A stretch of 58,299 nt of DNA from Candidatus Eiseniibacteriota bacterium (GTDB lineage Bacteria > Patescibacteriota > Microgenomatia > Levybacterales > UBA12049), in the NCBI GenBank assembly GCA_035631115.1, contig DASQJJ010000051.1:1-58299 (forward strand). Direction: 5' to 3'. A program made the translations under genes and the position numbers. Below are positions 3,255-58,299 of this stretch, piece after piece (positions within the stretch are counted from its first letter, which is position 1; the number at the start of each line of letters is the position of its first letter). The notes below the pieces were generated by a model. The model saw only the letters and a program-made list of their open reading frames with translations, did not search any database and was not told where the DNA came from.

Positions 3255-3791
3255 TTATACCATTTTCCCGAAAACCTGGTCAATTGCCCATTTAATATCG
3301 TCTAAGTCAAATCCACGCCTAGCAAGCATGGAGCCTGCTTTATTAAACCGCTCTTGCCTATCCATACTCTCATATTTTTTCTTTCTTTTCTCTAAAATCT
3401 CTTTTGCCAGTACCTTGTCATCCCGCGATTCGCCCGAGTGAGTCTTCTGATCTTCGTCAAAGGACAACAAGGCCTCATCGATAAGATCCTTACTAATACC
3501 TTTCTGTTTAAGCTCTAAGCGGATAAGTCTTTCTCCTTTTGGCTTAAACTCCGTACGAGAGCGTATCCACATTTTTGCAAATTCCAAATCATTCAGAAAT
3601 CTCTGCTTTTTGAGCTTATGAATAATAAGATCTGCCACATTGTCATCCTGAGTGGAACGAAGGATATATTCTTCGCTGCGTTCAGAATGACGGGAAAGAA
3701 TCTTTTTCAGATAATCCCGTATTTCCTTCTCGCTTCTTGGGCGGAAATTAAGGTATTTTAAAACGCGAAGATACAATGCATCAAAATCCAT
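3255..3791 (-). CDS. recX: RecX-like regulatory protein carrying an in-frame hairpin-repeat insertion
   Basis: YLNFRPRSEKEIRDYLKK...FLNDLEFAKMWIRSR...LKQKGISKDLIDEAL matches the RecX helical-repeat pattern. TATAGT lies 6 nt upstream of the ATG. Confidence 0.65.
   Translation of the reverse strand: MDFDALYLRVLKYLNFRPRSEKEIRDYLKKILSRHSERSEEYILRSTQDDNVADLIIHKLKKQRFLNDLEFAKMWIRSRTEFKPKGERLIRLELKQKGISKDLIDEALLSFDEDQKTHSGESRDDKVLAKEILEKRKKKYESMDRQERFNKAGSMLARRGFDLDDIKWAIDQVFGKMV
3642..3691. repeat. 50-nt near-palindromic element GTCATYCTGA...TCAGRATGAC, copy inside recX
   Basis: 43/50 identical to 32939..32988. The two halves are inverted repeats. It is translated in frame as ILSRHSERSEEYILRSTQDD. 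Confidence 0.7.
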
Positions 3792-9871: not shown

Positions 9872-9959
9872 AGGGATTATTATAACATCAGTTTTATTCT
9901 TCGCAAGGGGTCAAAACGAATTCAAATAGAAGTCCAAGAGTTTTTACTATACTCTTAAT

Positions 9960-9988
9960 TTGACAAAAAAAATAAATTATTTTATAAT
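9960..9988 (+). promoter_or_regulatory. consensus sigma70-type promoter TTGACA-N17-TATAAT
   Basis: TTGACA at 9960..9965, an exact 17-nt spacer, then TATAAT at 9983..9988. Confidence 0.55.
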
Positions 9989-9994
9989 AACTTT

Positions 9995-10103
9995 CATGAC
10001 AAGCAGACAAGCAATGATGGCTATGATGATGACCTCCTTAAGTGGGGCTGTTTCGTAGTATTCATTTTTGCCTTACGAACACCCCGCTAAGCGGGGTTTT
10101 TTT
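9995..10103 (+). ncRNA. candidate ~108-nt transcript: sRNA or leader with a Met-rich 20-codon ORF (9996..10058)
   Basis: Bounded by the consensus promoter and an intrinsic terminator. The ORF reads MTSRQAMMAMMMTSLSGAVS. ACCTCCTTA at 10032..10040 equals the 16S rRNA 3'-end (anti-SD) sequence. Confidence 0.35.
10082..10103 (+). terminator. rho-independent terminator
   Basis: CCCCGC-TAA-GCGGGG hairpin followed by TTTTTTT. Confidence 0.7.
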
Positions 10104-27583: not shown

Positions 27584-27826
27584 ATGTTGACCAAAAGAAA
27601 AAAGATAGTAGAATGGGATTCTATGATTATAGAAGATGAAAAAGAAGACCAAAGCACCCAACCTGCATCGTCTCCTTCCTCCAAAAAACAACCTAAAAAT
27701 CAGGGACAGGCAGAACAACCCTGGCAAGAAAGAGTAAATGGACAGCCTCAAGTACCGTGGAATGGAGACAGTCTTGGTAGAGCAAGAGGATTTCACCCAG
27801 CCCGCGGAAATCCCCTTAGGAGATAG
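27584..27826 (+). CDS. hypothetical Q/P/R-rich small protein (80 aa)
   Basis: ORF track only. No clear promoter or SD. Its 3' end overlaps the convergent phosphatase gene. Confidence 0.3.
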   Translation: MLTKRKKIVEWDSMIIEDEKEDQSTQPASSPSSKKQPKNQGQAEQPWQERVNGQPQVPWNGDSLGRARGFHPARGNPLRR

Positions 27827-28454
27827 GCACTTTTTTCTCTATCCCAACTGTTTTGACTACCTCAAATTCAACACCATCAGATTTTATTATCATATAGCCG
27901 GTGTTTTTTACCGATTCCGAGGGTAGTTCCTGAGGCGTTGCATAACCTAAGTGCATAAGAAATGTCCGCATAATATTACCGTGAGTTATAAGTAATACAT
28001 TTTTATTGGGGTAGGCAAGTGCAATCTCACGAAGAAAAGTAATAAATCTCCCCATCATTTCCTTATCTGATTCCATTCCTTGAGCAAACTTAACGCGATA
28101 TTTTTCCTTATATGATAGCTTGTTGTATGCATCACGTGCTTCTCTGAGTGCTCCCTGAAGATTTTTCTTGCTTTGTCCTTCCAATTCTCCCCACATGCGC
28201 TCTTTCAGAGCGTCTGTTGCCTGGATAGCAATTTCATCATCAAGAAGTATAAGCTTTGCTGATTCCTGCGATCTCATATAATTCGAGGAAAAAGCCGCAC
28301 TAAATGAAATATTTTTAAACTCTTCACCACGTTTTTGTGCCTGTATCCTACCATTTTCACTAAGATTTGGATTTTTGCTGCCTGAAGTTATGCCCTTCAA
28401 ATTATCTTCTGATTCACCATGTCTTACAATATAGAAAGTACAAAAATTATTCAC
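27816..28454 (-). CDS. histidine phosphatase (phosphoglycerate mutase-like) family protein, paralog 2
   Basis: FYIVRHGESEDN (RHG motif) and LLITHGNIMR. It is a tandem paralog of the upstream gene, with near-identical 3' ends at DNA level. Confidence 0.75.
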   Translation of the reverse strand: MNNFCTFYIVRHGESEDNLKGITSGSKNPNLSENGRIQAQKRGEEFKNISFSAAFSSNYMRSQESAKLILLDDEIAIQATDALKERMWGELEGQSKKNLQGALREARDAYNKLSYKEKYRVKFAQGMESDKEMMGRFITFLREIALAYPNKNVLLITHGNIMRTFLMHLGYATPQELPSESVKNTGYMIIKSDGVEFEVVKTVGIEKKVPIS

Positions 28455-29080
28455 TATTTTTTCTCTATCCCAACTATTTTAGCTATCTCAAATTCTACTC
28501 CATCTGACTTAAGCACAATATAGCTTGCATTAGCTGCACTAGTCGAGGGTAACTCCTTAATAGAAGCAAAGCCCAAATGAGCAAGAAGGGACCTCATCGA
28601 CCCTCCATGGGATACTATCAATAGTGTTTTATTTGGGTATGCCAAGGCTGTTTCCCTAAGAAACGTAATAAATCTACCCGCTGTCTCCTCTAGGCTTTCC
28701 ATACCCTCTACTGCTTTATGGGTCCACATTGCATCTGCATCCAGCGCATGATACACGTCCATTTTTTTCCTTATGTCTTCTTCTAATTCATCATGCCTTT
28801 TCCCTTCAACAATACCATGTGATTTTTCGCGAAGGAGTTTTTTTGCAACTACTGCAACAGTGTGCTCATTGGCAATGATTTGCGCTGTATTATACGAACG
28901 AGATAAGTCAGATGAGAATGCTGCGTCAAAATGAATATTTTTAAATTGCTTTGCCATTTCCTGAGCCTGTAAATGCCCATTTTCTGTTAATGGTGCGTCG
29001 AAATTGCCAGCATATCTTTTTTGAATATTTGCCTCAGACTCTGCATGCCTCACAATATAAAAAGTACAAGGATTATTCAT
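28454..29080 (-). CDS. histidine phosphatase family protein, paralog 1
   Basis: FYIVRHAESEAN and LLIVSHGGSMR. Confidence 0.75.
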   Translation of the reverse strand: MNNPCTFYIVRHAESEANIQKRYAGNFDAPLTENGHLQAQEMAKQFKNIHFDAAFSSDLSRSYNTAQIIANEHTVAVVAKKLLREKSHGIVEGKRHDELEEDIRKKMDVYHALDADAMWTHKAVEGMESLEETAGRFITFLRETALAYPNKTLLIVSHGGSMRSLLAHLGFASIKELPSTSAANASYIVLKSDGVEFEIAKIVGIEKK

Positions 29081-32938: not shown

Positions 32939-32988
32939 GTCATTCTGAGTGAAACGAAGAATATATCCTTCACTTCGTTCAGGATGAC
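32939..32988. repeat. 50-nt near-palindromic element GTCATTCTGA...TCAGGATGAC, intergenic copy
   Basis: 43/50 identical to the recX copy. It ends 3 nt before the TACAAT box of the methyltransferase gene. Confidence 0.7.
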
Positions 32989-33004
32989 ATGTACAATAGT
33001 ACTC

Positions 33005-35228: not shown

Positions 35229-35633
35229 ATGAATTATGTAGCAATTGTAGTAGCTGGTATTTTTAATATGGCTTTAGGATTTTTATGGTATGGACCTGTC
35301 TTTGGAAAAATGTGGATGGAATTTAACGGATACACAAAAGACTCCATGGAAAAAGCAAAAAAAGATGGCAGCATGGGAATGAAGTACGGCATGATGTTTG
35401 TGTCTGCATTGGTACTCGCATATTTTATGAATTGGTTGGTGAATGTAACAGGCGCAAGCAATTGGATGACAGGTGCACTCATTGGAGGAATGGCTTGGCT
35501 TGGATTTACTGCAACAACACAATTTGGTAATTGGATTTTTTCTGGTAAAAAATTTGGTGCATTTCTTATAGACACTGGATATTTCTTAGTAAGTTTTGCA
35601 GTATTTGGCGCCCTTTTCGCTGTATGGAAATAG
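35229..35633 (+). CDS. DUF1761-like membrane protein
   Basis: MNYVAIVVAGIFNMALGFLWYGPVFGKMW and four TM segments. GGGGGTGA SD upstream. Confidence 0.6.
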   Translation: MNYVAIVVAGIFNMALGFLWYGPVFGKMWMEFNGYTKDSMEKAKKDGSMGMKYGMMFVSALVLAYFMNWLVNVTGASNWMTGALIGGMAWLGFTATTQFGNWIFSGKKFGAFLIDTGYFLVSFAVFGALFAVWK

Positions 35634-35692
35634 TCTAAGAGTGAAGGGTTAAGGGTTGAAACCTATGATGTATCGTAGGTAGTTTTAATTTA

Positions 35693-35864
35693 CCATCCGT
35701 TGCATTATATATGCAGACAGCAGGCTATTCCCAATTCTCAGGTGAATTGGAATTCGATGTGCAACTATTTTGCTTTATTCAAACCAATCGGTAATCGAAT
35801 TACATTTAGCGAGTCCCTCCCGAGCGTCACCCTGAAATTGGGTAGACTGGTGGCTGCAAGGAAG
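35693..35864. repeat. 172-nt structured non-coding element, copy 1
   Basis: The 160-nt core (35701..35860) matches 43367..43526 at 154/160. It has no long ORF, contains mutually exclusive helices, and lies 14 nt after the stop of a minus-strand gene. Confidence 0.8.
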
Positions 35865-35878
35865 TGGTAGGCAAGCTG

Positions 35879-36214
35879 TCACTTGGAGAGGTTGCCCAAG
35901 AAGGAATTAACAATAGACAAAACTATACTAAATGCCAAAGCCCACCAAAATCCCTCTACAACAAATCCTGGCACTATATGTGCAGCAAGAAGTACCAAGA
36001 GCGCATTAATAACAAAAGTAAGAAGACCTAAAGTAAGAATATTTATGGGAAGGGTAAGAAGAAGAAGGATAGGCTTAAGAATGCTATTAATTACTCCCAA
36101 AGCAACTGCAGTAATAAGTGCTGTAAGAATATTGGCAATATGTACCCCAGGCAATACATAGGCAGTAACAAGAATAGCTAAAGCAGAGACCAGCCAGGAC
36201 AACAAGATTTCCAT
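35879..36214 (-). CDS. DUF360 / phage-holin-family-4-like membrane protein
   Basis: MEILLSWLVSALAILVTAYVLPGVHI...LGLLTFVINALLVLLAAHIVPGF. Start set at ATG 36214. The track extension to 36289 reads through a repeat half-site. Confidence 0.6.
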   Translation of the reverse strand: MEILLSWLVSALAILVTAYVLPGVHIANILTALITAVALGVINSILKPILLLLTLPINILTLGLLTFVINALLVLLAAHIVPGFVVEGFWWALAFSIVLSIVNSFLGNLSK

Positions 36215-36260
36215 ATAATCTATCGTAGCAAATGTAAGAAAGATTGCAAGCTTTCCCCAC

Positions 36261-36287
36261 GTCATCCTGAACAAAGCGAAGGATCTC
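36261..36287. repeat. half-copy of the GTCATCCTGA...GCGAAGGATC element
   Basis: GTCATCCTGAACAAAGCGAAGGATCTC matches one arm of the 50-nt palindromic element. Confidence 0.4.
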
Positions 36288-36377
36288 AACAGGGGAAATT
36301 TTTAGGGGCTAGCCCATATTAACATATTTTTAAAAAAATCAATAGACTTGTTTTTTATTTTGTACTTTGCGATAGTA

Positions 36378-37454: not shown

Positions 37455-37985
37455 TTATGGAGATTTTTCATCATCGTAAGCTCGTGTCCAAACGTCTTCC
37501 TCTTCTCTTTGAGGTGGCCTTTTATGAGCAGGAATAGGACCATCACCATCTCTTTTTTTCAATTTTCTTGCACCCTCTCTTACGCCTGGACTCTTACTCT
37601 GTGCATGGAGTGCTAGTCTTCTTTGATACATATCTCTTAGACGATCATGAAGATCAAGCGCTTCATCACGGTTTACATCGATCACATGATTTGGACCTGC
37701 TGGAATAGTAATGCGTACACCTGTCCAATCTCCTTCCCTCTCAACCTCCACAAAACCAGCTGCAGTAGCCATTGCTTTCTCCAAAAGTATCTTGCGATCC
37801 CTTAATCGCTGAGTTCCATGAAAATGATCTGTCTCCGCAGAACTTGCACCCTGTAACCTATCTTTTCTTCTCCTATCAGGCTTTGGACTTCTTGAATTCA
37901 AAGAATTACCAAGCTTTCCCTCTCCACCACTACCGGCTTTTCTTGGTTCTCCGTCTTGAGGCATATCTATAGTTCTACTAGGCAT
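37455..37985 (-). CDS. hypothetical charged protein (176 aa) downstream of fusA
   Basis: ORF track. It starts 80 nt after the fusA stop. R/E/D/K/P-rich with no recognised motif. Confidence 0.55.
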   Translation of the reverse strand: MPSRTIDMPQDGEPRKAGSGGEGKLGNSLNSRSPKPDRRRKDRLQGASSAETDHFHGTQRLRDRKILLEKAMATAAGFVEVEREGDWTGVRITIPAGPNHVIDVNRDEALDLHDRLRDMYQRRLALHAQSKSPGVREGARKLKKRDGDGPIPAHKRPPQREEEDVWTRAYDDEKSP

Positions 37986-38065
37986 ATGATAGTGTCATTT
38001 ATACATGAGGCGTTTTCTCTTTGCAATAAGAAATATAAGTCCTACGATGATTGTCTATCGAAGCA

Positions 38066-40204
38066 TTACTCTACTCTTCCAGTAAAGGTGGATTTGGCAA
38101 GAAGGTCTTGGACAATATTTCGTGGTACTGGCTCGTAATGACTTGGCTCCATGTAGTACGATGCACGACCCTGAGACATACTTCTAATTTGTGTTGCATA
38201 TCCAGAAAGCTCTGAAAGTGGCACCATAGCCTTAATAATTGTTGCTCTACTTCTCTCTTCTGTACCAGAAATTTGTGCTCTTTTACTAGACAAATCTCCA
38301 ATAATATCTCCCATAAATTCACTTGGAGTAGTGACTTCAACCAACATGATAGGCTCCAAAAGTTGCATATCGGCTTTCTTGGATGCATTTTGGAAAGCCA
38401 TAGATGCAGCAATCTTAAAGGCAACATCGGAAGAATCAACATCATGATACGATCCGTCATACAGTGTAACTTTGGTATCTACAATTGGATAGCCCAAAAG
38501 CACACCATTTTCTTCTGTTTCCTTAACGCCTTTTTGAACAGAAATAATAAATTCTGCTGGAATTGCTCCTCCTTTAATAGCATTTACGAATTCGTTTCCT
38601 TCTCCTCGTGGCTTTGGCTCCAGCTTAAGATAGCAGTGACCATATTGTCCTCGTCCTCCGGATTGTCGAATATACTTGCCTTCTGCAGACGCTTCTTGTC
38701 CAATAGTCTCTTTGTAAGCAACTTGTGGTGCGCCAACATTAGCCAAGACGCCAAATTCGCGCTTCATTCTGTCTACCATAACTTCCAGCTGCAATTCTCC
38801 AATTCCAGAAATAATGGTCTGGTTGGTCTCGTGATTGGTCTTAACAGTAAAGGTTGGGTCTTCTTCTGTTAAGCGCTTTAATGCTAAGCCTAATTTTTCT
38901 TGGTCTGCTTTTGTCTGAGGCTCAATTGCCAAAGAAATAACAGGCTCTGGGAAAGTAATTTTTTCAAGGACAATTGGGGATTTATCATCACACAAAGTAT
39001 CTCCTGTTATGGTGTCTTTAAGTCCTACAAGTGCGACAATTTCTCCTGCATATGCTTCTTTAATTTCTTCTCTGGTATTTGCATGCATAAGAAGAATACG
39101 ACCAACACGCTCAGTAATATTTTTTGTAGAGTTATAAATATAACTTCCTGCCTCTACTTTTCCAGAATACACTCTAAAGTAGGTAAGTTTTCCAACATGT
39201 GGGTCTATTTGGATTTTAAATGCGAGTCCAGACAATTTTTCTTCAGGGACTAATTTTCGTACTTCTGGAGCTTCTGTCTTAGGATTAATTCCCTTAAGCT
39301 CTGCCAAATCCATTGGAGAGGGTAAATAATCAACAACAGCATCAAGAAGTGGTTGTACTCCTTTATTTCGAAGGGATGTACCTGCATAAATTGGTACTAA
39401 TTTATATGCAATAACTGCTGCGCGAAGCGCTTTTTTAAGCTCATCTACTGTTGGCTCTACACCACCAAGATATTTTTCCAAAAGCACATCGTCTGTTTCT
39501 GCAATTTTTTCTATTAATTTTTGTCTATATTCCTCTACCTGGGCCTTCATATCCTCTGGGACTTCATCTGTTGTGTCAAATGATGCACCTAAATCGTCTG
39601 AGTGCCATTTTAAAGAAGTCCTGGTAAGTAAATCCACATTACCAACATAGGTATTTTCTGACCCAATTGGGAGTACCATAATTGCAGGATTTGCACCAAG
39701 TCTATCCTCGATAGATTTTACTGTTGCCAAAAAGTCTGCACCCAACTTGTCCATTTTATTTACAAAACAAATTCTTGGTACTTTATATTTGTCTGCTTGT
39801 CTCCAAACAGTCTCTGACTGTGACTGCACACCTTCTTCTGCATCTAAGACAGTAATGCCACCATCGAGGACTCTGAGAGAGCGCTCTACTTCTGCAGTAA
39901 AGTCCACATGCCCTGGTGTATCGATAATATTAATTCTATACTGATTTTCCTGACCAGCTTTGTCTCCCGTATGAGTCCAGAATGCAGTGGTGGCAGCAGA
40001 CACAATAGTAATACCTCTTTCTTTTTCCTGCTCCATCCAGTCCATTTGGGTATTTCCTTCGTCGATGTCTCCAATTTTGTAGGTACGTCCGGTGTAGTAG
40101 AGGATTCTTTCTGTTGTGGTTGTCTTGCCTGCGTCAATATGCGCAATAATACCAATATTACGAATCTTGTCTAGTTCTGCGTGTCGGTTAGCTGAATCGG
40201 CCAT
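38066..40204 (-). CDS. fusA: elongation factor G
   Basis: [37 protein letters not shown] and NKMD. Start set at ATG 40204. The track extension to 40261 was rejected. Confidence 0.95.
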
Positions 40205-40274
40205 AAAAGTAAAAAATTCTAAGCTCCAAAAACCAAATCCCAAACAAATCACAAGTACCAAAATTCAAAATGTT

Positions 40275-40298
40275 TAGGGTTTAGAAATTAGGATTTAG
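40275..40298. repeat. heptad TAG array upstream of fusA
   Basis: TAG at 40275, 40282, 40289 and 40296. Confidence 0.7.
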
Positions 40299-40344
40299 GA
40301 TTTACAACTTTAGTATACCATAAATTTTGAAGAGAGAAAAGAAG

Positions 40345-40686
40345 CTAGAATTGTCTTCCTCTTCGTTCATGAAGAGAACCACCTGTATCACGACTTGCTG
40401 TTGCCAACGTTAGTGCACCTGTGTTGTGTGTTACCTCTGGTTGGAGTGATGAATGTCGACGACGGGCACGCTCTGCTTGCTCTTCTAATTGCTTGCGAAG
40501 TAGTTCCTCAAGATTAACAGCTGATGCTTGCGACGTTGCATACTCTGGAGCTTGAGCAACATACTGACTTGCGGGAGCGTTTTTAACAAATGGTGAACCA
40601 CGAAGCGGAAGATCTCCTGGGCCGCCTCCATGACCAATCCGCACATCATGTCTTGATCCCATTTCTCGTTGCACTGCTACTGTCAT
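40345..40686 (-). CDS. hypothetical protein (113 aa) with REMGS N-terminal motif
   Basis: ORF track. It lies 6 nt after the stop of a 51-aa ORF that shares REMGS and EL..KQ.E....E..RRR.S motifs. Confidence 0.5.
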   Translation of the reverse strand: MTVAVQREMGSRHDVRIGHGGGPGDLPLRGSPFVKNAPASQYVAQAPEYATSQASAVNLEELLRKQLEEQAERARRRHSSLQPEVTHNTGALTLATASRDTGGSLHERRGRQF

Positions 40687-40692
40687 ATAAAT

Positions 40693-40848
40693 TTATAAGT
40701 GACCGGCCTCTTCAGCCGATGGCGCTGGCCCACTGCGTCTTCTGTTTTCCTCAACATGTTGTTCTATTGCCTGCTTTTCCAATTCCTGACCTCTCACAGT
40801 CCATTGCCCTGCTTCAGACTGAGAACCCATTTCTCTTGATTGACTCAT
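40693..40848 (-). CDS. hypothetical 51-aa protein, short paralog of 40345..40686
   Basis: Own translation gives MSQSREMGSQSEAGQWTVRGQELEKQAIEQHVEENRRRSGPAPSAEEAGHL. It is below the track cut-off. Confidence 0.4.
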   Translation of the reverse strand: MSQSREMGSQSEAGQWTVRGQELEKQAIEQHVEENRRRSGPAPSAEEAGHL

Positions 40849-40929
40849 AGTTATAGGACAGTTTTACCACTTATTCACCAAATAGTCAAGTTGACGAAGT
40901 CCTTCCCACTGTGTGCTATAATCCCTTGT

Positions 40930-41568
40930 ATGGAAAAGGTTATTCTCTTTGTTATGATTCTGGGAGTTGGAGTAGCAAGCGTTATTCTGCTTCTGAGTAA
41001 GTCTTCCCAACCTACCAGTACTGCACTCGACCTCCTTAATGCCACGCCTACTGTGAGTGCCCTCGAACAGCAGCAACAGGCAGCTCAACAGCAACAACAG
41101 CAGGCACAACCCAAGACTCAGCCAATTGGTCCTGTGGAGGTCCTAGCCCCCAAACAGGCAACTATTTCTACCAGTAAAGGCGATATTACTGTCCAGCTGT
41201 ATGCGACCGAGGCAGCCCAAACAGTCAATAATTTTGCACAAAGAGCAAAAGCTGGATTTTATAAGGGTCTTATTTTCCATAGAGTTGAAGATTGGGTTGT
41301 CCAAGGAGGAGACCCCCTAGGGAATGGCACAGGAGGAGGACAAATGGCAACCGAAATCAATAACGAGCCTTTCGAGGTAGGCTCGTTGGGAGTAGCAAGA
41401 GGCAACGATATTCAAATATCCAACGATTCCCAATTCTTTATAACTAAAACAGCAGCTTCCTGGCTTAACAATCAATATACGAATTTTGGCAAAGTGACAA
41501 GTGGCATGAGTGTGGTAAATAAATTGCAAATTGGAGATAAAATCCTAGGAATTACTACCAGTAATTAA
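40930..41568 (+). CDS. membrane-anchored cyclophilin-type peptidyl-prolyl isomerase
   Basis: GFYKGLIFHRVEDWVVQGGDPLGNGTGG. N-terminal TM plus Q-rich linker. TGcTATAAT lies 7 nt upstream of ATG 40930. Confidence 0.8.
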   Translation: MEKVILFVMILGVGVASVILLLSKSSQPTSTALDLLNATPTVSALEQQQQAAQQQQQQAQPKTQPIGPVEVLAPKQATISTSKGDITVQLYATEAAQTVNNFAQRAKAGFYKGLIFHRVEDWVVQGGDPLGNGTGGGQMATEINNEPFEVGSLGVARGNDIQISNDSQFFITKTAASWLNNQYTNFGKVTSGMSVVNKLQIGDKILGITTSN

Positions 41569-41608
41569 TCTTGAAAAAGCTCGCCCCATAGGGTAAAATA
41601 TTCCTCTT

Positions 41609-41764
41609 ATGACAAGATATGCATCCAAGCCCAGTTTTGATAAACACAGAAGAGTAAAAAGAAAAAAAGCAAGGGAAGCAAAGCATGAAGCAGCAGAATC
41701 AGAACCTACCTTGACAGCTGCTCAGAAAGCAAAACAGAGAGCTGAGTGGAGACCAAAGGAGTAA
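41609..41764 (+). CDS. possible 51-aa Lys/Arg-rich protein
   Basis: Own translation gives MTRYASKPSFDKHRRVKRKKAREAKHEAAESEPTLTAAQKAKQRAEWRPKE. TAAAAT lies 9 nt upstream. No other support. Confidence 0.3.
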   Translation: MTRYASKPSFDKHRRVKRKKAREAKHEAAESEPTLTAAQKAKQRAEWRPKE

Positions 41765-41776
41765 TAGTACTTTTCC

Positions 41777-42826
41777 CTACTCTTTCTCCTTTATCTCCCC
41801 AACCAAGCTTTCAATAATATCTTCTATGCTCACAATGCCCACCATTGCTTTAGCATTATTCACAACAATTGCTAAGTGGACTCCTTTTTCCTTCATAAGC
41901 GTTAATACATCGTCAATTCTTTTCCCATCCGGAATAAAAATGGTTTTGCGGATAAGATCTGTTTGGTTAACTGGCGAATATTGTGCAAGCGTCTTTTCGT
42001 ATACATATATATCTGTCACAGCAACATACCCAACGATTTCATTTAAAGAATCTTTATACACTGGGAAGCGGGTGTGGAGATTTTTCTTTGTAATTTTTTT
42101 TGCAATTTCGAGTATTGCAACATCGTAGGGAAATGCAACAACTTCTTTTTTTGGCACCATAATCCGCGAAATTGGCAAATCTCCTATTCGAAAAAGTCTA
42201 TTAATTATTTCTACTTCTTGCTGGTCTATTTCTCCTCCCTTTGCACTTTGCATAAGAATAATTTTTATTTCTTCTTCTGTATAAATAGATTTTTTAATAT
42301 GCGTTGAGATGCCAAAAATGCCTAGAATAAATCCTGCAGTCACGCTTAACAGCCACACAAAAGGCCTAAAAATAGTAGTAAAAACCATAAGAGGAATAAT
42401 AATTATGGTTGCTATTTTTTCTGGCTTTTGCAGTGCTGTGGTCTTTGGAGCCAACTCTCCAAAAACAATTTGTAAAAAGGTAATAACAAAAAAGGAAATA
42501 GTAAGAGCAACTATGTGTGAGGAGACTAAAAGAATAGTTGGGGGCATATGTGGCTCGAGAAAGTCTCCAAAAAAATGAGCTAATGCAGGCTCGCCAAGCC
42601 ATCCAAGGGCGAGAGATGCTAAGGTAATACCAAATTGTGTTGCAGAAATATAGGTAGACAGTGAATTGTATGCCTGCAGGACAAGATTTGCTGTTGAATG
42701 CCCTTTACTTGCCATTGCTTCCAATTTGCTTCTTCGTGAGGAAACAAGGGCAAATTCCGACATAACAAAAAATCCATTCAGGAAAATAAAGAGAAAAATA
42801 AGAAGAAGTTGAAAAAGCAGATCCAT
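41777..42826 (-). CDS. CNNM/HlyC-CorC family transporter (DUF21 + CBS pair, no CorC C-terminal domain)
   Basis: LNGFFVMSEFALVSSRRSKLE...GELAPK (DUF21), followed by a CBS pair. Confidence 0.8.
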   Translation of the reverse strand: MDLLFQLLLIFLFIFLNGFFVMSEFALVSSRRSKLEAMASKGHSTANLVLQAYNSLSTYISATQFGITLASLALGWLGEPALAHFFGDFLEPHMPPTILLVSSHIVALTISFFVITFLQIVFGELAPKTTALQKPEKIATIIIIPLMVFTTIFRPFVWLLSVTAGFILGIFGISTHIKKSIYTEEEIKIILMQSAKGGEIDQQEVEIINRLFRIGDLPISRIMVPKKEVVAFPYDVAILEIAKKITKKNLHTRFPVYKDSLNEIVGYVAVTDIYVYEKTLAQYSPVNQTDLIRKTIFIPDGKRIDDVLTLMKEKGVHLAIVVNNAKAMVGIVSIEDIIESLVGEIKEKE

Positions 42827-42850
42827 CTACCAGTAGTATAGCAAATATTC
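42811..42850. repeat. 40-bp direct repeat A (promoter and first codons of the CNNM gene)
   Basis: GAAAAAGCAGATCCATCTACCAGTAGTATAGCAAATATTC matches 43271..43308 at 34 of 40 aligned positions (4 substitutions plus a 2-nt gap). Confidence 0.65.
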
Positions 42851-42869
42851 GCTTTTTGATTTGAAAAAT

Positions 42870-43241
42870 TTATTGATCTTTTTTATCCAAATCATCTAAG
42901 AGTCTATCTGCTCTATCACCAAGCTTATCATGAAGAATATCTCTAGCTAGATCCCTGTTAATATCTCCGTCATTTTTGCCTCCTATTCCTGCTTGTCTGT
43001 ACGCATCAGTGAGTCTTTTCCCATGTGTAGGTAAATGAGTACCATCCTCCAGTTTTCTCCAATCGTTGGCCCCAAGAGGTGGTACAGGATCCTTAGGATC
43101 GTTACTGGGATAACCATTATTGTTAATTGCATCCGCAGCATCAAAAGGATCCATCCTAGAAGCTTTTCTACCTCGCTTTAAATGATCACCAAATTGCCTA
43201 CTTCTCTTTGGATTATCTCTCTGAGATCTTTCTTGTACCAT
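42870..43241 (-). CDS. hypothetical charged protein (123 aa) bracketed by the 40-bp duplication
   Basis: ORF track. TAGAAT lies 6 nt upstream of the ATG. Confidence 0.5.
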   Translation of the reverse strand: MVQERSQRDNPKRSRQFGDHLKRGRKASRMDPFDAADAINNNGYPSNDPKDPVPPLGANDWRKLEDGTHLPTHGKRLTDAYRQAGIGGKNDGDINRDLARDILHDKLGDRADRLLDDLDKKDQ

Positions 43242-43270: not shown

Positions 43271-43308
43271 GAAAAAGCACGTCCATCTACCATTAGTGTA
43301 GCAAATTC
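43271..43308. repeat. 40-bp direct repeat B (orphan copy of the CNNM promoter/start)
   Basis: Minus strand reads TACACT-aatggtag-ATGGACGTGCTTTTTC, followed by a stop after 11 codons. Confidence 0.65.
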
Positions 43309-43357: not shown

Positions 43358-43530
43358 CCATTACGCTGCATTATATCTGCAGACAGCAGGCTATTCCCAA
43401 TTCTCAGGTGAATTGGAATTCGATGTGCAACTATTTTGCTTTACTTAAGCCAATCGGTAATCGAATTACATTTAGCGAGTCCCTCCCGAGTGTCACCCTG
43501 AAATTGGGTAGACTGATGGCTGCAAGAAAG
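43358..43530. repeat. 172-nt structured non-coding element, copy 2
   Basis: Same orientation as copy 1. It lies between the rpsG stop and the next minus-strand gene. Confidence 0.8.
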
Positions 43531-43534
43531 AAAG

Positions 43535-43557
43535 ATTCTGGACAAGCCAGAATGACG
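43535..43557. repeat. hairpin element ATTCTGG-ACAAG-CCAGAAT-GACG
   Basis: 21/23 identical to 55197..55219. The two differences are paired stem positions. Confidence 0.55.
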
Positions 43558-43568
43558 GGGATAAAAAC

Positions 43569-44042
43569 TTACCAACGGAAGTGGGCGAAGGCTCTATTTG
43601 CTTCTGCTTGTCTGTGTGTATTATCTCTTTTCTTAATTGCCTCTCCCTTACCCTCTAGGGCATCCATAAATTCTGCAACTAATTTTTCTGAGAAGGTATG
43701 GAATTCTTTATTTGGTCGTGCTGCTGCTGCCTCGAGTAACCACCTAATTGCAACTGCATATTTTCTATCTCCTCGTACTTCTGTAGGGACCTGGTAATTT
43801 GCTCCACCGATTCTTCGAGCTTTAATTTCTACTTTTGGTGCAATTGCTTCTAATACTTTTTGGAATAAATCGAGTGGATCTTGTCCTTTTGCCTTGAGCA
43901 AATCAAATGCATTGTAGACTACTTTTTCTGCGATGGTTTTTTTACCATCCCGCATAACATTATTAATAAATTTAGCAACCAAAACACTCCCGTATAATTG
44001 ATCTGGTTCTGTTGTCCTTTTCGTAACTTTTGCGTGTCTCAT
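43569..44042 (-). CDS. rpsG: 30S ribosomal protein S7
   Basis: DQLYGSVLVAKFINNVMRDGKK...ANRAFAHFRW. Confidence 0.95.
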   Translation of the reverse strand: MRHAKVTKRTTEPDQLYGSVLVAKFINNVMRDGKKTIAEKVVYNAFDLLKAKGQDPLDLFQKVLEAIAPKVEIKARRIGGANYQVPTEVRGDRKYAVAIRWLLEAAAARPNKEFHTFSEKLVAEFMDALEGKGEAIKKRDNTHRQAEANRAFAHFRW

Positions 44043-54295: not shown

Positions 54296-56719
54296 ATGAA
54301 ACTTCCTTTTGCGAGTCTTTTTCAAAAAAAAGAACCTGCTGATTATTTTCTTGCGCTATTATTTCGAGACGAAGAAATTCATGCTGTTGTTTTTGAACAA
54401 ATCAACAATAGAGTACAGGTTGTTGGCCAGGGCAAAACAAAGCTTTCTACATCTCTAGATAGAGCATCTGACGAAATGTTGCTAGACAGCTGCGACCGCG
54501 CAATTAGCGTTGCCGAAGAAAGTCTTCCTAATGGAGTTACTACACACAAGACTGTCTTTGGCGTTAAGGAAACATGGGTAGAAGACACACATATTACGCA
54601 ACAGTATTTGTCCAGGCTTAAAACAATTAGCGAGCAATTAGACCTTAAGCCTATTGGATTTCTCGTATTTCCCGAGGCAATTGCCCATCTTCTTCAAAGA
54701 GAAGAGGGAGCACCAGTCTCTGCAATTCTTGTAGAGTTGGGAGCAAAGCAAGCAAGTATTACCCTTATTCGTGCAGGGCGAATTGTTGGCACAAAAGAAG
54801 TACAACTGGAAGAATCTGCAATGGCAACAGTAGAAAATGCATTAAGACAATTTGAAAATGTAGAAATACTTCCATCAAGAATTGTTTTATTTAATACAGG
54901 GGATAATAGTGTGGAGAAAAAATTTCTTACTCACAAGTGGAGTAAGTCACTTCCCTTTTTACACGTCCCGCAAGTTACCACATTACCTGGAGACTTTGAT
55001 ACACGCGCCATTCTCTTTGGCACTGCAACACAAATGGGTCTGGATGCAATAGATTTAGTAAAACAACCACTTAAAAAAGCAGAGGAATTTTTTGAAGAAC
55101 CTAGTGAAACAAAAGAACCAGAAGAAACAAAAGAAGAAGAAACCGTCATTCTGGGGAGTGAAACGACTCCAGAATCTACAAAAGAACTTGAAGAAGATGC
55201 TGGACAAGCCAGCATGACGAATGAAGACGAGCGACAGGCCCCCGCGTCTGAAGACAAAGAGAAAGAAGAACTGGAAGAAGTCTCTGGCAAAGACACATCG
55301 GAATACTTTGGATTTGTAAAAGGCACAGATATTGCCCAAAAAATAGACCATCCTCACACAACTTCCCTTCCATCCAAAGATATAGACGAGATAACAGCAG
55401 AAATTCCAGAAGAAGAAAAAGAAGAAGAGTTGGCAGGAAGTGCTCCAGGATTTAGTATGGCAGGACCAATTTTTGTAGAAGGTGCAAAAAAAGTATATGC
55501 TCAAGTAAGAAGATTTCTTCCAAGACAATTTACCCTCGCACCAGTTATGAATCTTTTTTCTGGACTCCCCAAAGGAAATGGAGGAATACCGAAGCTTTTT
55601 ATATTTGTACCACTTGCTATTGTTGTCGTAGTACTTCTTTTTCTATGGTATATTTTTTCTCTTCATGCAAAAGTAACAATTTTCCTAACCCCCAAAACAA
55701 TTTCCCAGGATAAGAGTGTTACTTTTACAACAACTGGGTCAACAGATGCTTCCAAAAATCTTATTGCTGCAGATAGTGTTACAACAACAGAAGATGGAAA
55801 AGTGTCGGGCAATGCAACTGGGACAAAAGATGTTGGCACTCCTGCAAAAGGGACGGTTACTGTATTTAATAGCGATGATTCTTCTCACACTTTGTCCTCT
55901 GGCACTACCATTACGTCCAGTAGCGGACCAAAATTTACTCTGGATAAAGATGTTACAGTTGCATCTGCATCCTCTGACCCATTTGAAGGAACCAAGCCTT
56001 CTACGGCAGACGTCCCAGTAACAGCAAGTAGTATTGGGACAGAATCCAATCTTCCTTCTAATACAAAATTCACAATTTCTGGGACTAGTGTATTAGCAGC
56101 AAAAAATGCAAATGCTTTCTCTGGTGGTACAAAAAAATCCATAACTGTTGTGAGTCAAAAGGATTTAGATACCCTAACAGCTCAACTAACCGACAACTTA
56201 AAAGATAAAGCAAAATCAGATTTACAAAGCAAGGTATCTGGAGATGCAGTAATTCTTCCAGACTTTACAAAAACAGCTCCAACCAAAACACTTTTCGATA
56301 AAAAGGTTGGGGATGAAAGCAGTAGTATTAATTTAGACGGCTCGATTACCTACACAACAATCTCGTATAAAAAGTCTGATATAGAGAATTACACAAAATC
56401 TGCATTGTCTGGACAGCTGCCAAGTGACCTTACGTTGTCTCAGGAAGGTATTACGTATTCTGTAAAAGATATGACAACAAAAGACGATACCACAAAAGCA
56501 ACGCTGAGTCTTAAGGCACTGCTTATTCCAACTCTCGATACCAAAACCTTAGCCTCTCAAATTGCTGGAAAATCGTTTGATCAAGCACGAGATATTTTAT
56601 CTGCAACGCCACAATTTTCGGATGTTACCACAACGCTTTCGCCCAATCTTTTCTTTTTGCCAAAAGTGCTTCCCCGACTCTCCGGGAATATTACCATTAC
56701 CATAGTTGCTCATGAGTAA
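54296..56719 (+). CDS. large bitopic membrane protein: actin-fold (FtsA/PilM-like) N-domain, acidic linker, TM, S/T-rich extracytoplasmic domain
   Basis: N-domain has SAILVELGAKQASITLIRAGRIVGTKEV. TM is LFIFVPLAIVVVVLLFLWYIFSL. The domain assignment is my reading only. Confidence 0.75.
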   Translation: MKLPFASLFQKKEPADYFLALLFRDEEIHAVVFEQINNRVQVVGQGKTKLSTSLDRASDEMLLDSCDRAISVAEESLPNGVTTHKTVFGVKETWVEDTHITQQYLSRLKTISEQLDLKPIGFLVFPEAIAHLLQREEGAPVSAILVELGAKQASITLIRAGRIVGTKEVQLEESAMATVENALRQFENVEILPSRIVLFNTGDNSVEKKFLTHKWSKSLPFLHVPQVTTLPGDFDTRAILFGTATQMGLDAIDLVKQPLKKAEEFFEEPSETKEPEETKEEETVILGSETTPESTKELEEDAGQASMTNEDERQAPASEDKEKEELEEVSGKDTSEYFGFVKGTDIAQKIDHPHTTSLPSKDIDEITAEIPEEEKEEELAGSAPGFSMAGPIFVEGAKKVYAQVRRFLPRQFTLAPVMNLFSGLPKGNGGIPKLFIFVPLAIVVVVLLFLWYIFSLHAKVTIFLTPKTISQDKSVTFTTTGSTDASKNLIAADSVTTTEDGKVSGNATGTKDVGTPAKGTVTVFNSDDSSHTLSSGTTITSSSGPKFTLDKDVTVASASSDPFEGTKPSTADVPVTASSIGTESNLPSNTKFTISGTSVLAAKNANAFSGGTKKSITVVSQKDLDTLTAQLTDNLKDKAKSDLQSKVSGDAVILPDFTKTAPTKTLFDKKVGDESSSINLDGSITYTTISYKKSDIENYTKSALSGQLPSDLTLSQEGITYSVKDMTTKDDTTKATLSLKALLIPTLDTKTLASQIAGKSFDQARDILSATPQFSDVTTTLSPNLFFLPKVLPRLSGNITITIVAHE
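55145..55176. repeat. hairpin repeat GTCATTCTGGGGAGT-GAAACG-ACTCCAGAATC embedded in CDS
   Basis: Stem ATTCTGG(GG)AGT/ACTCCAGAAT. It is translated in frame as VILGSETTPES within the acidic linker. Confidence 0.45.
55197..55219. repeat. hairpin element ATGCTGG-ACAAG-CCAGCAT-GACG embedded in CDS
   Basis: Second copy of the 43535 element, carrying a compensatory T-A to G-C stem change. It is translated as DAGQASMT. Confidence 0.5.
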
Positions 56720-57446
56720 ACACTACTATTACAGTAAAAAAAGGTTGTTAAGCCCAACTTTTTTTGTCCGTGCATTTGGATTTGTACTTTTTAGTCTTGG
56801 CGTCTGTGTAATTGTGTATATTTTTAGTCCACTGGTTATTTGGCAACTAACCCTTGCTCCTGCGTTTGCCAACTCTCAGATTACTGCCCCTATTCCACAA
56901 CGGTCCCTTCTTACTCCAATGACAATTAAAAGTCTCGTGACAACATCTTTACAAAATGTTGCAGGAGTAGACTATACAGATGCATCGAATTGGTTTCCTG
57001 GATATACCATAGGAAAAGGAGCACCAAGTGTCCCTTCATATTTTCTCAGTATTCCAAAGTTAGGAATTTCTAATGCGTATGTCTCAACTGGAGACATAAA
57101 TTTAGCAAGCCATTTAGTAAGTCTTGGCGGGACGTCAATTCCTCCAGAAAAAGGAAACACTGTTATTTTTGGTCATTCAACACTTCCCCAACTATTCAAT
57201 CCAAAAGACTACAAAACAATTTTTGCCAATATGTATAAAATGCAAATAGATGATACCTTTATGACGACAGTAAGTAATGTTGTGTACACATATAAGATTT
57301 TTTCCATAACAGTTGTCGACCCAGAAGATACATCGGTACTTGCCCAGACATATGATGATAGTTATGTTACGCTTATTACCTGTACTCCACCTGGTACTAT
57401 TTGGAAAAGACTTATCATAAAAGCACGATTACAGAAATTAAACTAG
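56706..57446 (+). CDS. sortase family transpeptidase
   Basis: N-terminal TM, catalytic FGHS, and VTLITCTPPG (TLxTC). It overlaps the upstream gene by 14 nt. Confidence 0.7.
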   Translation: MLMSKHYYYSKKRLLSPTFFVRAFGFVLFSLGVCVIVYIFSPLVIWQLTLAPAFANSQITAPIPQRSLLTPMTIKSLVTTSLQNVAGVDYTDASNWFPGYTIGKGAPSVPSYFLSIPKLGISNAYVSTGDINLASHLVSLGGTSIPPEKGNTVIFGHSTLPQLFNPKDYKTIFANMYKMQIDDTFMTTVSNVVYTYKIFSITVVDPEDTSVLAQTYDDSYVTLITCTPPGTIWKRLIIKARLQKLN

Positions 57447-57469
57447 ATTCAAGATTTAAGATTTAAGAA

Positions 57470-57567
57470 GGGGTGGCGCGAGTGGGGGACCCACGAAACC
57501 TTTCTGCAGTGAATGAAATGAACGAAGCAGGTTTTGGGGGTGACGAGTCGACAGGACCCCGACAATA
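57470..57567 (+). promoter_or_regulatory. GC-rich structured leader candidate upstream of the phosphorylase gene
   Basis: Two similar ~28-nt GC boxes (GGGTGGCGCGAGTGGGGGACCCACGAAA and GGGTGACGAGTCGACAGGACCCCGACAA) flank a central hairpin AAACC..TGC..GCAGGTTT. Confidence 0.35.
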
Positions 57568-57570
57568 TAT

Positions 57571-58299
57571 ATGGATGAGAAAACAATTGCAATAGATGCA
57601 ATCAGAAAAAAATTAGTCGGCAAAAATCTTACCTATAAAGAAGTTTTTGCAATTATGGATGAGATTGCACACAATAAGTTGGGTGATGTCCTCACGACCT
57701 ATTTTGCAGCTTCTGGGTACGCAAAAGGGTTTACCGATGAGGAGTTGTACTTTCTCACAAAAGCCATGGTTGAGACAGGAGAAAAAATAACGTGGCATGA
57801 GAAAATTGTTGCAGACAAACATTCTATAGGTGGTGTTCCGGGTACTCGCACAACAATGATTGTTGTACCAATTATCGCTGCTGCAGGATTTCTTATTCCT
57901 AAATCCTCTTCGCGTGCTATTACCACACCCGATGGTACAGCAGATGACATGGAAGTATTGTCAAAGGTGGAATTTAGCAGAGAAGAAATTAAGGAAATTG
58001 TTAAGGCAACAAATGGATGCATTGTCTGGGGAGGGAGCTTTAATATTGCACCAGCAGACGATGTGATGATTCATGTTGAAGCGCCTCTTTTATTTGAAAG
58101 TTATGACAAAATTATTGTTTCTATTATGGCGAAAAAGGTTGCTTTTGGCAGTAATCATGTTGTTATCGATTTGCCCTATGGCAAAACAGTAAAAGTCCAT
58201 AGACATGCAGATGCCGAAGTATTGCGAGATAAATTTTTATTTGTTGCAGAAAAATTTGGAGTAAAAATGCGTGTGTTAATTCACGAAACAGACGAGCCA
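57571..58299 (+). CDS. thymidine/AMP phosphorylase family protein (runs off window end)
   Basis: Own translation gives MDEKTIAIDAIRKKLVGKNLTYKEVFAIMDE...DKHSIGGVPGTRTTMIVVPIIAAAG...SSRAITTPDGTADDMEVL. The frame stays open for 243 codons to the window end. Confidence 0.8.
   Translation, partial: MDEKTIAIDAIRKKLVGKNLTYKEVFAIMDEIAHNKLGDVLTTYFAASGYAKGFTDEELYFLTKAMVETGEKITWHEKIVADKHSIGGVPGTRTTMIVVPIIAAAGFLIPKSSSRAITTPDGTADDMEVLSKVEFSREEIKEIVKATNGCIVWGGSFNIAPADDVMIHVEAPLLFESYDKIIVSIMAKKVAFGSNHVVIDLPYGKTVKVHRHADAEVLRDKFLFVAEKFGVKMRVLIHETDEP

Follow-up and report, generated by a model that had tools for sequence, protein, structure and literature searches.

What kind of element is a short non-coding sequence that stands twice, in almost the same letters, among the ribosomal genes of a patescibacterial genome: an RNA gene, a regulatory site or a mobile repeat? 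We addressed this question for a stretch of 58,299 nucleotides (the window, meaning the whole stretch of DNA that was analysed), which covers the rpoBC/str/S10-spc ribosomal region and has a GC content of 39%. The organism is a patescibacterium, as the best named homologues of its S7 protein are assigned to the 'Patescibacteria group' and to Levyibacteriota. To our knowledge, very few non-coding elements have been described in Patescibacteria (CPR), whose genomes are tiny and streamlined.

The repeat pair in the window and its wider family

A repeat search of the window returned positions 35698-35864 and 43364-43530 as one direct-repeat family of 167 nt, 95% identical and spaced by 7666 nt, and a 30-mer taken from the repeat occurred exactly twice in the window against 0 occurrences in 100 shuffles. 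The base-by-base comparison of copy 1 with copy 2 found 8 differences in 167 nt. Thus, the two direct copies, 7.7 kb apart, that the preliminary description had reported were borne out, and all six of its substitution positions (35711, 35778, 35780, 35783, 35825 and 35850) were confirmed, to which the comparison added 35700 and 35861. In the pairwise alignment, the similarity of the two copies faded to the left of about 35693/43358 and to the right of about 35864/43530.

Comparison with nine homologues on other contigs showed that the conserved unit, about 145-149 nt, is shorter than the repeat. For copy 1 it spans 35713-35857 on the + strand, from the first to the last base of the closing stem P1 (165 bits and an E value of 5e-42 with the covariance model described below), and for copy 2 the equivalent unit spans 43379-43523 on the + strand (160 bits, 97% identical to copy 1 over the model). 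The pairwise alignment of the window copies also contains a left extension of about 20 nt (35693-35712, + strand; counterpart 43358-43378), which the window copies alone possess and which is not present in two 95%-identical copies on other contigs (L004 and L010). Read on the - strand, this extension places a TATAAT just beyond the edge of the element. Because the extra flank of about 20 nt is common to copies 1 and 2 only, their duplication must have exceeded the conserved unit and was not precise.

Copy 1 is flanked by a convergent pair of genes, DUF1761 (35229-35633, +) and Phage_holin_4_2/DUF360 (35879-36289, -), and copy 2 lies between rpsG (43569-44042, -) and a 123-aa ORF without a Pfam match (42870-43241, -). 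The view that the copies hold no credible ORF was upheld, as no reading frame was free of stops in all copies, type B (see below) had stops in six of six frames, and a 1-nt indel separates copies that are otherwise 95% identical. A 36-aa ORF preceded by an SD-like AGGTGA was considered as a coding candidate and rejected; it occurs in type A only, and its ATG is missing from types B, C and D.

Pattern scans were then used to look for the element elsewhere. A 22-mer matched one of 185,579 GTDB species genomes, on contig CAYOZJ010000004.1 (L003) of a MAG labelled Gammaproteobacteria whose S7 protein is 91% identical to that of the window, and nine JGI metagenome contigs (L004-L012) had a match to a 20-mer. 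When the window is included, the total comes to 11 full copies, a copy truncated at a contig end (L005) and a 20-nt remnant (L011). All 11 full copies measure 149-150 nt between identical end points, and they fall into four types: type A comprises window copies 1 and 2, L004 and L010; type B comprises L006, L007 and L008, with the cut L005 copy; type C comprises L011, L012 and L009; and type D is L003. The search for further copies that the preliminary description had called for therefore yielded nine additional full copies on other contigs from GTDB and JGI.

The contig of L008 is 99.9% identical to window positions 56025-58299 and continues beyond the window end, which means that the genome of the window itself has a third copy. 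This copy is of type B, has the same orientation, lies about 2.5 kb beyond 58299 and is about 75% identical to copies 1 and 2, so this one genome carries at least three copies of two diverged types. The GC skew is negative on the window + strand, and all three copies in this genome have the same orientation; as three copies are too few, no inference about the replication strand was drawn.

A covariance model (R1) was built from the 11 full copies. When the window, the ten element-bearing loci and twelve loci from relatives were searched with R1, no further full copy was found, and the only extra matches were the cut L005 copy and a weak match on the L011 remnant. The L003 genome had a single exact match to the 22-mer that is invariant in all 11 copies. 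Rfam 15 at the gathering score returned one tRNA-Pro for the whole window and nothing on the element, which agrees with the earlier statement that it belongs to no named RNA family; a permissive search (E<=10) of copy 1 gave three chance-level matches of 14-18 bits, and representatives of types A, B, C and D (L010, L006, L012 and L003) gave no match on the element. Scans of viral contigs with the invariant blocks gave 0 matches, a sensitive blastn search against phage and plasmid collections gave none, and exact-protein look-ups of the flanking genes returned the same strain only. A full-text literature search found no description of such an element in CPR. The window copies are members of a family that had not been described before, in a narrow clade of Patescibacteria from soil and the rhizosphere.

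A fold common to all copies

RNAalifold, single-sequence folding and pair counting agreed on one structure common to all copies. On the + strand, this structure is a rod of about 31 bp, in which a variable, covarying closing stem leads into an invariant 15-bp helix with two bulges and from there into a three-way junction, and single-sequence minimum-free-energy (MFE) folds recovered the same junction. The near-palindromic rod also folds on the - strand. In the L008 copy the 5' side of the stem has a defect.

The closing stem P1 has its 5' strand at 35713-35727 (+ strand), pairing with 35843-35857. Of its 15 positions 12 are paired and three are purine·purine oppositions, at 35717·35853, at 35720·35850 and at 35724·35846, the last being G·A in 10 of 11 copies and A·A in L007. 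Within the fold, P1 is conserved least (copies are 33-100% identical there) and changes fastest of the paired regions, and its changes are compensatory (C-G to U·G to U-A; A-U to G-C), with stepwise paths visible at 11-141 (C-G to U·G to U-A) and at 9-143 (G·G to G-C). A UU bulge separates P1 from the invariant core helix, whose 5' strand lies at 35730-35745 (+ strand) and pairs with 35827-35842, with 15 of 15 pairs identical in 11 of 11 copies. This core consists of P1b (35730-35736 with 35836-35842), a bulged C at 35737, and P1c (35738-35745 with 35827-35835, base 35830 being bulged); its arms are 91-100% identical across types. The 3' strands of P1c, P1b and P1 occupy 35827-35857 (+ strand), and the block CCTGAAATTGGGTAGACT within them is invariant.

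Beyond the core, short and mostly conserved joining strands lead to two local hairpins. P2 spans 35748-35804 (+ strand), with 35748-35758 pairing with 35794-35804 and a tip at 35759-35793. It contains the compensatory pairs 45-88 (UA 7, CG 4) and 48-85 (UA 8, CG 3), and at pair 40-93 a G·A has changed to A-U or G·U. The tip keeps its length of 35-36 nt, but its sequence is effectively random between types, at 25-50% identity. The hairpin P3 (GCGAG...CGAGC, 35809-35825, + strand) has a stem of G-C, C-G, G·A, A·G and G-C, with the tandem G·A/A·G inside it. P3 covaries: C-G becomes U-A in type C and G-C becomes A-U in L003, and the closing pair of copy 2 is G·U owing to the substitution at 35825. 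The sequence of P3 is about 50% identical between groups, and pairing is maintained.

Over the whole fold, standard pairs filled 97.1% of 451 pair cells, against 24-39% when partners were slid by 1-3 columns, and compensatory double changes were found at six pairs in 14 cells, against 3.0 and 4.0 in column shuffles, all of these counts being taken from a model-fitted alignment that leans slightly towards structure. Conservation is bimodal, with arms and junction 91-100% identical, invariant blocks of 36 and 18 nt, and about 60 invariant positions in total. On the + strand, G·U occurs in 5 cells and A·C in 1, all other oppositions are purine·purine, and the MFE is lower than on the opposite strand in 8 of 11 copies, by up to 17 kcal/mol. 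The G·U bias, the purine·purine oppositions and the lower predicted energy together point to the window + strand as the one that folds and is selected.

The preliminary description had held that the substitutions between the window copies avoid the helices, and the common fold bears this out in terms of pairing: three fall in the P2 tip, 35825 turns G-C into G·U, 35850 lies at a conserved G·G mismatch, and 35711 is outside the fold. Two of its three proposed helices also survived, since AATTCGAT/ATCGAATT is P2 with its two compensatory pairs and CCCAATT/AATTGGG is the invariant P1b. The third, ATTCCCAATT/AATTGGAAT, on which the idea of a switch or pseudoknot was based, was not supported: it shows no covariation, and the one pair in it that varies is disrupted in the three type-B copies. 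This helix can form in every copy and is a possible alternative or co-transcriptional conformer, and its dual pairing, if real, would help to explain the invariance of the 5' block. The same helix list did not include the 15-bp outer closing stem, P1c or hairpin P3.

Genomic placement and turnover of the copies

All copies seen are intergenic. A terminator-like hairpin with a T-run (35661-35680, +) stands at the end of the DUF1761 gene, 32 nt before copy 1, and another with a T-rich tail (43535-43553, -) stands at the end of rpsG, 11 nt from the right end of copy 2. The latter is of the AGAATGAC type, which likewise flanks the L007 and L010 copies. Where the signals are legible, the element sits in the gap between a terminator and the next promoter: copy 2 follows the rpsG terminator with a TATAAT ahead of the next ORF, the L012 and L009 copies lie between the rplT terminator and a canonical pheS promoter, and the L003 and L011 copies closely precede the extended -10 of an rsmB-like gene. 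The terminator-like sites are separate hairpins adjoining the element. Consensus scans found no conserved promoter or terminator belonging to the element, though weak copy-specific -10-like hexamers may be present, and neither strand has a T-run after P1 as an intrinsic terminator would. From the edge of the stem outwards, the flanks of different copies are unrelated.

The neighbours are likewise unrelated and include rpsG, DUF360, DUF1761, rpsF/guaA, rplT/pheS, rsmB, RmuC/EamA, CNNM and FtsE-like genes. No neighbouring protein recurs across loci, no transposase was found among the scanned ORFs of the window and the loci or in the precomputed gene tables, and none of the neighbouring ORFs scanned (58-kb window and locus fragments) matched Y1_Tnp. 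Orientation is mixed, with five loci co-directional with at least one neighbour and three antisense to both. A position after the stop of a minus-strand gene, as noted in the preliminary description, thus holds for both window copies but not for the family, in which other copies lie upstream, downstream or antisense of unrelated genes. As for the functions suggested there, a MITE-like or protein-binding element is the best match and a 3'-UTR element the poorest, given that the copies lie past the terminators of their neighbours; an omega-RNA or transposon-end relic found no support, because no TnpB, IscB or transposase is nearby.

Presence of the element varies among close relatives. In seven relatives with S7 proteins 84-95% identical (L013, L014, L017, L023, L024, L026 and L028), no copy was found in the portion of the rpoB-tuf region examined. 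In L023, the closest relative, only 14 nt lie between rpsG and the promoter region of the CNNM gene and the element is missing, whereas the same interval in the window is about 720 nt and contains a hairpin, the element, a spacer, a duplicated 36-mer and the 123-aa ORF. Because this whole interval of about 720 nt differs in L023, the exact insertion junctions are not readable, and no clean pair of filled and empty junctions was found. The 20-nt remnant in L011 derives from an arm of the A/B type, is inverted, and stands five bases away from a hairpin repeat of another, GC-rich family. This second family occurs in the same genomes and is unrelated to the element. Several short-read contigs (L002, L005, L008, L010 and L020) end inside the element, and the element and the second hairpin-repeat family explain the recurrent contig breaks in assemblies of these organisms.

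Copies at orthologous sites are conserved far above the surrounding sequence. Between L012 and L009, only 2 of 179 nt differ over the element and the pheS promoter, although identity falls to 88.6% in pheS and the spacer upstream can hardly be aligned. Between L003 and L011, the arms are 93% identical and the flanking genes 72-74% identical in DNA and about 74% in protein.

Candidate readings and comparison with known systems

We tentatively read the element as a non-autonomous, duplicative structured repeat of the ERIC/REPIN/RPE/MITE kind, whose invariant helix would dock a putative protein encoded elsewhere, and we regard this reading as quite plausible, if still short of probable. New copies would arise duplicatively, without target-site duplication and not always precisely. 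The active form would be the single-stranded + strand, either as RNA or as ssDNA, on which the invariant bulged helix and the junction may serve as the docking site for a putative trans-acting protein encoded elsewhere in the genome; this protein could be an enzyme that mobilises the element or an RNA/DNA-binding factor of the host. After insertion, copies would be maintained under constraint, which would place the element closer to ERIC and REPINs than to a decaying MITE. Against a mobile repeat stand several results: no mobilising enzyme or target-site duplication was found in the loci analysed, conservation is lowest at the outermost bases, which is not the pattern of transposon ends, the ten pattern-matched loci from GTDB and JGI are all short units in which an autonomous parent is not visible, and the copy number is low. 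In addition, the conservation of orthologous copies in place would not be expected for a purely selfish relic, and the covariation of P2 and P3 together with a strand-specific fold is what a functional RNA gene would show.

The copies might instead be paralogous genes for a stable structured sRNA of about 145 nt, trans-acting or serving as an RNP scaffold, which we consider possible but would not expect. The closing stem is predicted to shield the ends of such an RNA, the bulged helix and junction to bind protein, and the P2 tip to give copy-specific specificity. This would account for the strand-specific fold with its G·U pairs and purine·purine mismatches, for covariation in the closing stem and both local hairpins, and for a constant length in spite of unrelated tip sequences between types. 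The strong conservation of the core of orthologous copies in place, the one exact match to the invariant 22-mer in a related MAG (L003), and the location of copies outside the transcription units of their neighbours, as for independent genes, also speak for it. However, no promoter or terminator is conserved at a fixed distance and the flanks are unrelated up to the stem, copies are missing in close relatives, truncated remnants exist, both window copies have extra flank in common, and the range is very narrow, with the invariant 22-mer in 1 of 185,579 species representatives. The tips also lack convincing target complementarity: a search of the P2 tips for guide complementarity to the flanks or the window gave chance-level matches of 11-18 nt. 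The one exception lies in the type-B tip, where 11 nt of the 3' arm of the element itself, CATCCTGAAAT, recur.

A bolder form of the RNA interpretation would make the element a new structured ncRNA class of a Patescibacteria lineage, namely a protein-bound scaffold of about 145 nt with a programmable P2 tip; this we think doubtful. Such an RNA might act as a guide or adaptor for a putative effector, or it might be the RNA or ssDNA intermediate of a new hairpin-based mobile element, and paralogous types A, B and perhaps C would then stand together in one genome. The idea that the outer stem is a split target hairpin was rejected, because the stem is identical in copies of types A and B that lie in unrelated contexts and diverges gradually between types.

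An improbable alternative is a cis-acting RNA module in the neighbouring mRNAs, working in either orientation as a UTR stabiliser, an RNase III/RNase E site, a terminator or an insulator. Cis action of near-palindromic elements has been shown for ERIC, REP and Correia elements, and here both strands can fold into the long, stable and nearly palindromic rod, the copies stand between genes and adjoin terminators, and both orientations occur. But the element follows the upstream terminator and precedes the next promoter in copy 1, copy 2, L012/L009 and L003/L011, and a UTR module is disfavoured because the copies thus lie outside the transcripts of their neighbours. Furthermore, no U-tract follows the stem, and the asymmetric junction and the G·U bias point to a single strand.

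Still less credible is a double-stranded DNA site with two inverted protein-binding arms at fixed spacing, such as a paired operator, an insulator or a nucleoid-protein site. Both arms are indeed invariant without covariation, their spacing is fixed, and several copies abut -10/-35 boxes (L003/L011, L012/L009, and a TATAAT beside both window copies); yet duplex DNA would not explain why P1, P2 and P3 change by compensation or why the strands are asymmetric, and terminators are adjoined as often as promoters. Chance or neutral local duplication of intergenic DNA of no wider significance would fit the extra flank of about 20 nt common to the window copies, but it is refuted by the nine further copies, which lie in unrelated contexts and in a second species and keep the structure, and we give it almost no weight.

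Several known classes of element were compared and rejected as identities for the repeat. OMEGA and bridge RNAs (TnpB, IscB, IS110) were rejected since no cognate nuclease or recombinase is a neighbour and the loci have no neighbour in common. A DGR template or variable repeat was rejected since the copies do not differ specifically at adenines, and since neither an RT nor a target gene was found. Hammerhead and other ribozymes, C/D-box K-turns, tRNA-like structures, 5S, 6S and Y RNA had no Rfam or motif support. Like Y RNA/YrlA and 6S RNA, the element has a stem that closes the 5' and 3' ends, a conserved bulged helix that may bind protein, and a branched distal module; unlike them, it has no Rfam match, shows by eye no Ro-binding or 6S central-bubble features, and is multi-copy, non-syntenic and without a promoter.

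The likeness to integron attC sites such as VCRs lies in a strand-specific hairpin, conserved extrahelical bases, a variable terminal structure and repetition in one orientation. As an identity, attC was rejected: the ends read GCAGAC...GGCTGC without RYYYAAC/GTTRRRY R''/R' core sites, and neither a cassette array nor an integrase is nearby. Unlike the units of an attC array, the window copies are 7.7 kb apart, and essential genes such as fusA lie between them.

With MITEs (Correia/NEMIS, RUP and Nezha), the element has in common a length of about 100-200 bp, a non-coding and dispersed nature, terminal complementarity, sequence subfamilies, nested or truncated copies and breaks in assemblies. 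It differs in that target-site duplication is lacking and the terminal bases are unconserved and covarying. When the flanks of the 11 copies from 8 contexts were aligned by their ends, neither a direct repeat nor a common dinucleotide was found. A MITE of the TIR type was rejected, as the outer 9 bp at each end are the least conserved (33-100%) and change by compensation, while the invariant blocks lie in a subterminal position. Scans of GTDB and JGI for exact matches to 20-22-mers of the 5' arm, which would miss a diverged parent, returned 10 loci, and a parent IS carrying these arms was not among them. The Rickettsia palindromic elements (RPE) offer a further parallel, being about 100-150 bp long with a stable hairpin in a host with a reduced genome and with several families per genome, but RPE often lie in frame inside genes, whereas all copies here are intergenic.

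REPINs are mobilised by RAYT transposases (Bertels & Rainey 2011). The element resembles them in having two conserved inverted arms around a variable spacer, a long single-strand hairpin, no target-site duplication, persistence at orthologous sites and, as proposed here, a dependence on a protein encoded elsewhere. The arms of a REPIN are equivalent short REP palindromes at its very ends, whereas the arms here are subterminal and variation is greatest at the ends. Either arm is able to fold by itself (the 5' arm by computation, the 3' arm by inspection), and the two hairpins use different registers. Also unlike a REPIN, the spacer holds two covarying hairpins, and a genome has few copies rather than tens to hundreds.

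Another parallel in behaviour is ERIC. These repeats, also called IRU, are imperfect palindromes of 127 bp in enterobacteria and vibrios (Hulton 1991; Wilson & Sharp 2006; De Gregorio 2005). Like ERIC, the element is a small intergenic imperfect palindrome in either orientation at low to moderate copy number, it is conserved across species above the surrounding DNA with substitutions that keep the hairpin, and it has no known transposase and a slow or unclear mobility. The sequence and the host phylum are unrelated, and the likeness is meant as one of behaviour, without a claim of homology. Moreover, ERIC lies inside transcribed regions and these copies lie beyond terminators, ERIC is a plain hairpin and this element has an asymmetric three-way junction with a strand bias, and the TA flanks reported for ERICs of Yersinia are absent here.

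On these comparisons, we would class the element as one that works like the ERIC/REPIN/RPE/MITE repeats, without assigning it to any of the named families. Should it prove to be an RNA gene, it would be a new RNA class. If it is a mobile repeat, it would be one without target duplication and without conserved termini that is apparently retained under selection, and it would add a CPR member to the poorly understood ERIC/REPIN/RPE group and point to a partner protein. In either case, the covariance model R1 can be used to map the clade and the element.

Variable islands of the str operon

The str operon is split in the window, of which 37455-43241 was compared with the rpoB-tuf region of seven relatives (loci L013, L014, L017, L023, L024, L026 and L028). 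The content of the rpsG-fusA and fusA-tuf gaps, made up of small hypothetical ORFs and accessory genes (CNNM, PPIase, AIR synthase, MFS and GH18), differs from relative to relative, and the two gaps are hypervariable islands within an otherwise conserved core region. Both window copies of the 150-nt element (35713-35857 and 43379-43523) were located in these islands of the split operon.

A 123-aa ORF (42870-43241) is flanked on both sides by a 36-nt direct repeat (42811-42846 and 43271-43306, 89% identical), which is the CNNM promoter together with the start of that gene. Because the closest relative, L023, carries a single copy of the 36-nt repeat and lacks the ORF, the 123-aa ORF looks like a separate insertion, with 36 nt duplicated.

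Further repeats around the 150-nt element

A third copy of the 150-nt element in the window genome was located at 12-160 of the metagenome contig L008, about 2.5 kb past window position 58299. This copy is of type B, with an A-run and a deletion of 4 nt in the 5' strand of its closing stem. In type B, 11 nt of the 3' arm of the element itself (CATCCTGAAAT) recur within the tip of hairpin P2.

A second intergenic repeat family, GC-rich, about 95-105 nt long (GGGGTGGCG...GACAGGACCCC) and unrelated to the 150-nt element, was also observed, with copies at 57466-57570 of the window and, on metagenome contigs, at L009 1579-1683, L012 2146-2236 and L011 about 9930-10020. The window copy was 97% identical to the L009 copy, which lies in the pheS-pheT gap. 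A long hairpin was predicted, in which 7 of the 23 predicted pairs had compensatory changes, and the family had no match in Rfam.

On L011, 20 nt left over from a 3' arm of A/B type (10026-10045, inverted orientation) represent a truncated 150-nt element. They lie 118 nt upstream of the intact type-C copy, with the GC-rich repeat 5 bases away, in an intergenic region that is a hotspot of nested or decayed insertions.

Short hairpin repeats of the type GTCATYCTG...CAGRATGAC are dispersed across intergenic DNA (window 3641-3691, 32939-32989 and 43535-43553; flanks of L007, L010 and L004), and several of them act as or adjoin terminators directly beside copies of the 150-nt element.

Gene calls and record labels

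The DUF360/Phage_holin_4_2 gene (35879-36289) gave a strong Pfam match (E 2e-33). The ENA contig that is 99.9% identical does not list this gene in its table, and its product has no exact protein on record; probably another start was called there, or the gene was missed. Within the ribosomal-protein region, two tandem paralogous His_Phos_1 (histidine-phosphatase) genes (27816-28454 and 28454-29080) account for the 68-nt repeat D2 of the window repeat search.

The MAG GCA_964408485.1 (L003 and L013, contigs CAYOZJ01...) is titled 'uncultured Gammaproteobacteria bacterium' in its record. Its S7 protein was 91% identical to that of the window, and the order rpoB-rpoC-rpsL-rpsG-CNNM-PPIase is common to both. 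The MAG is very probably a mislabelled Patescibacterium.
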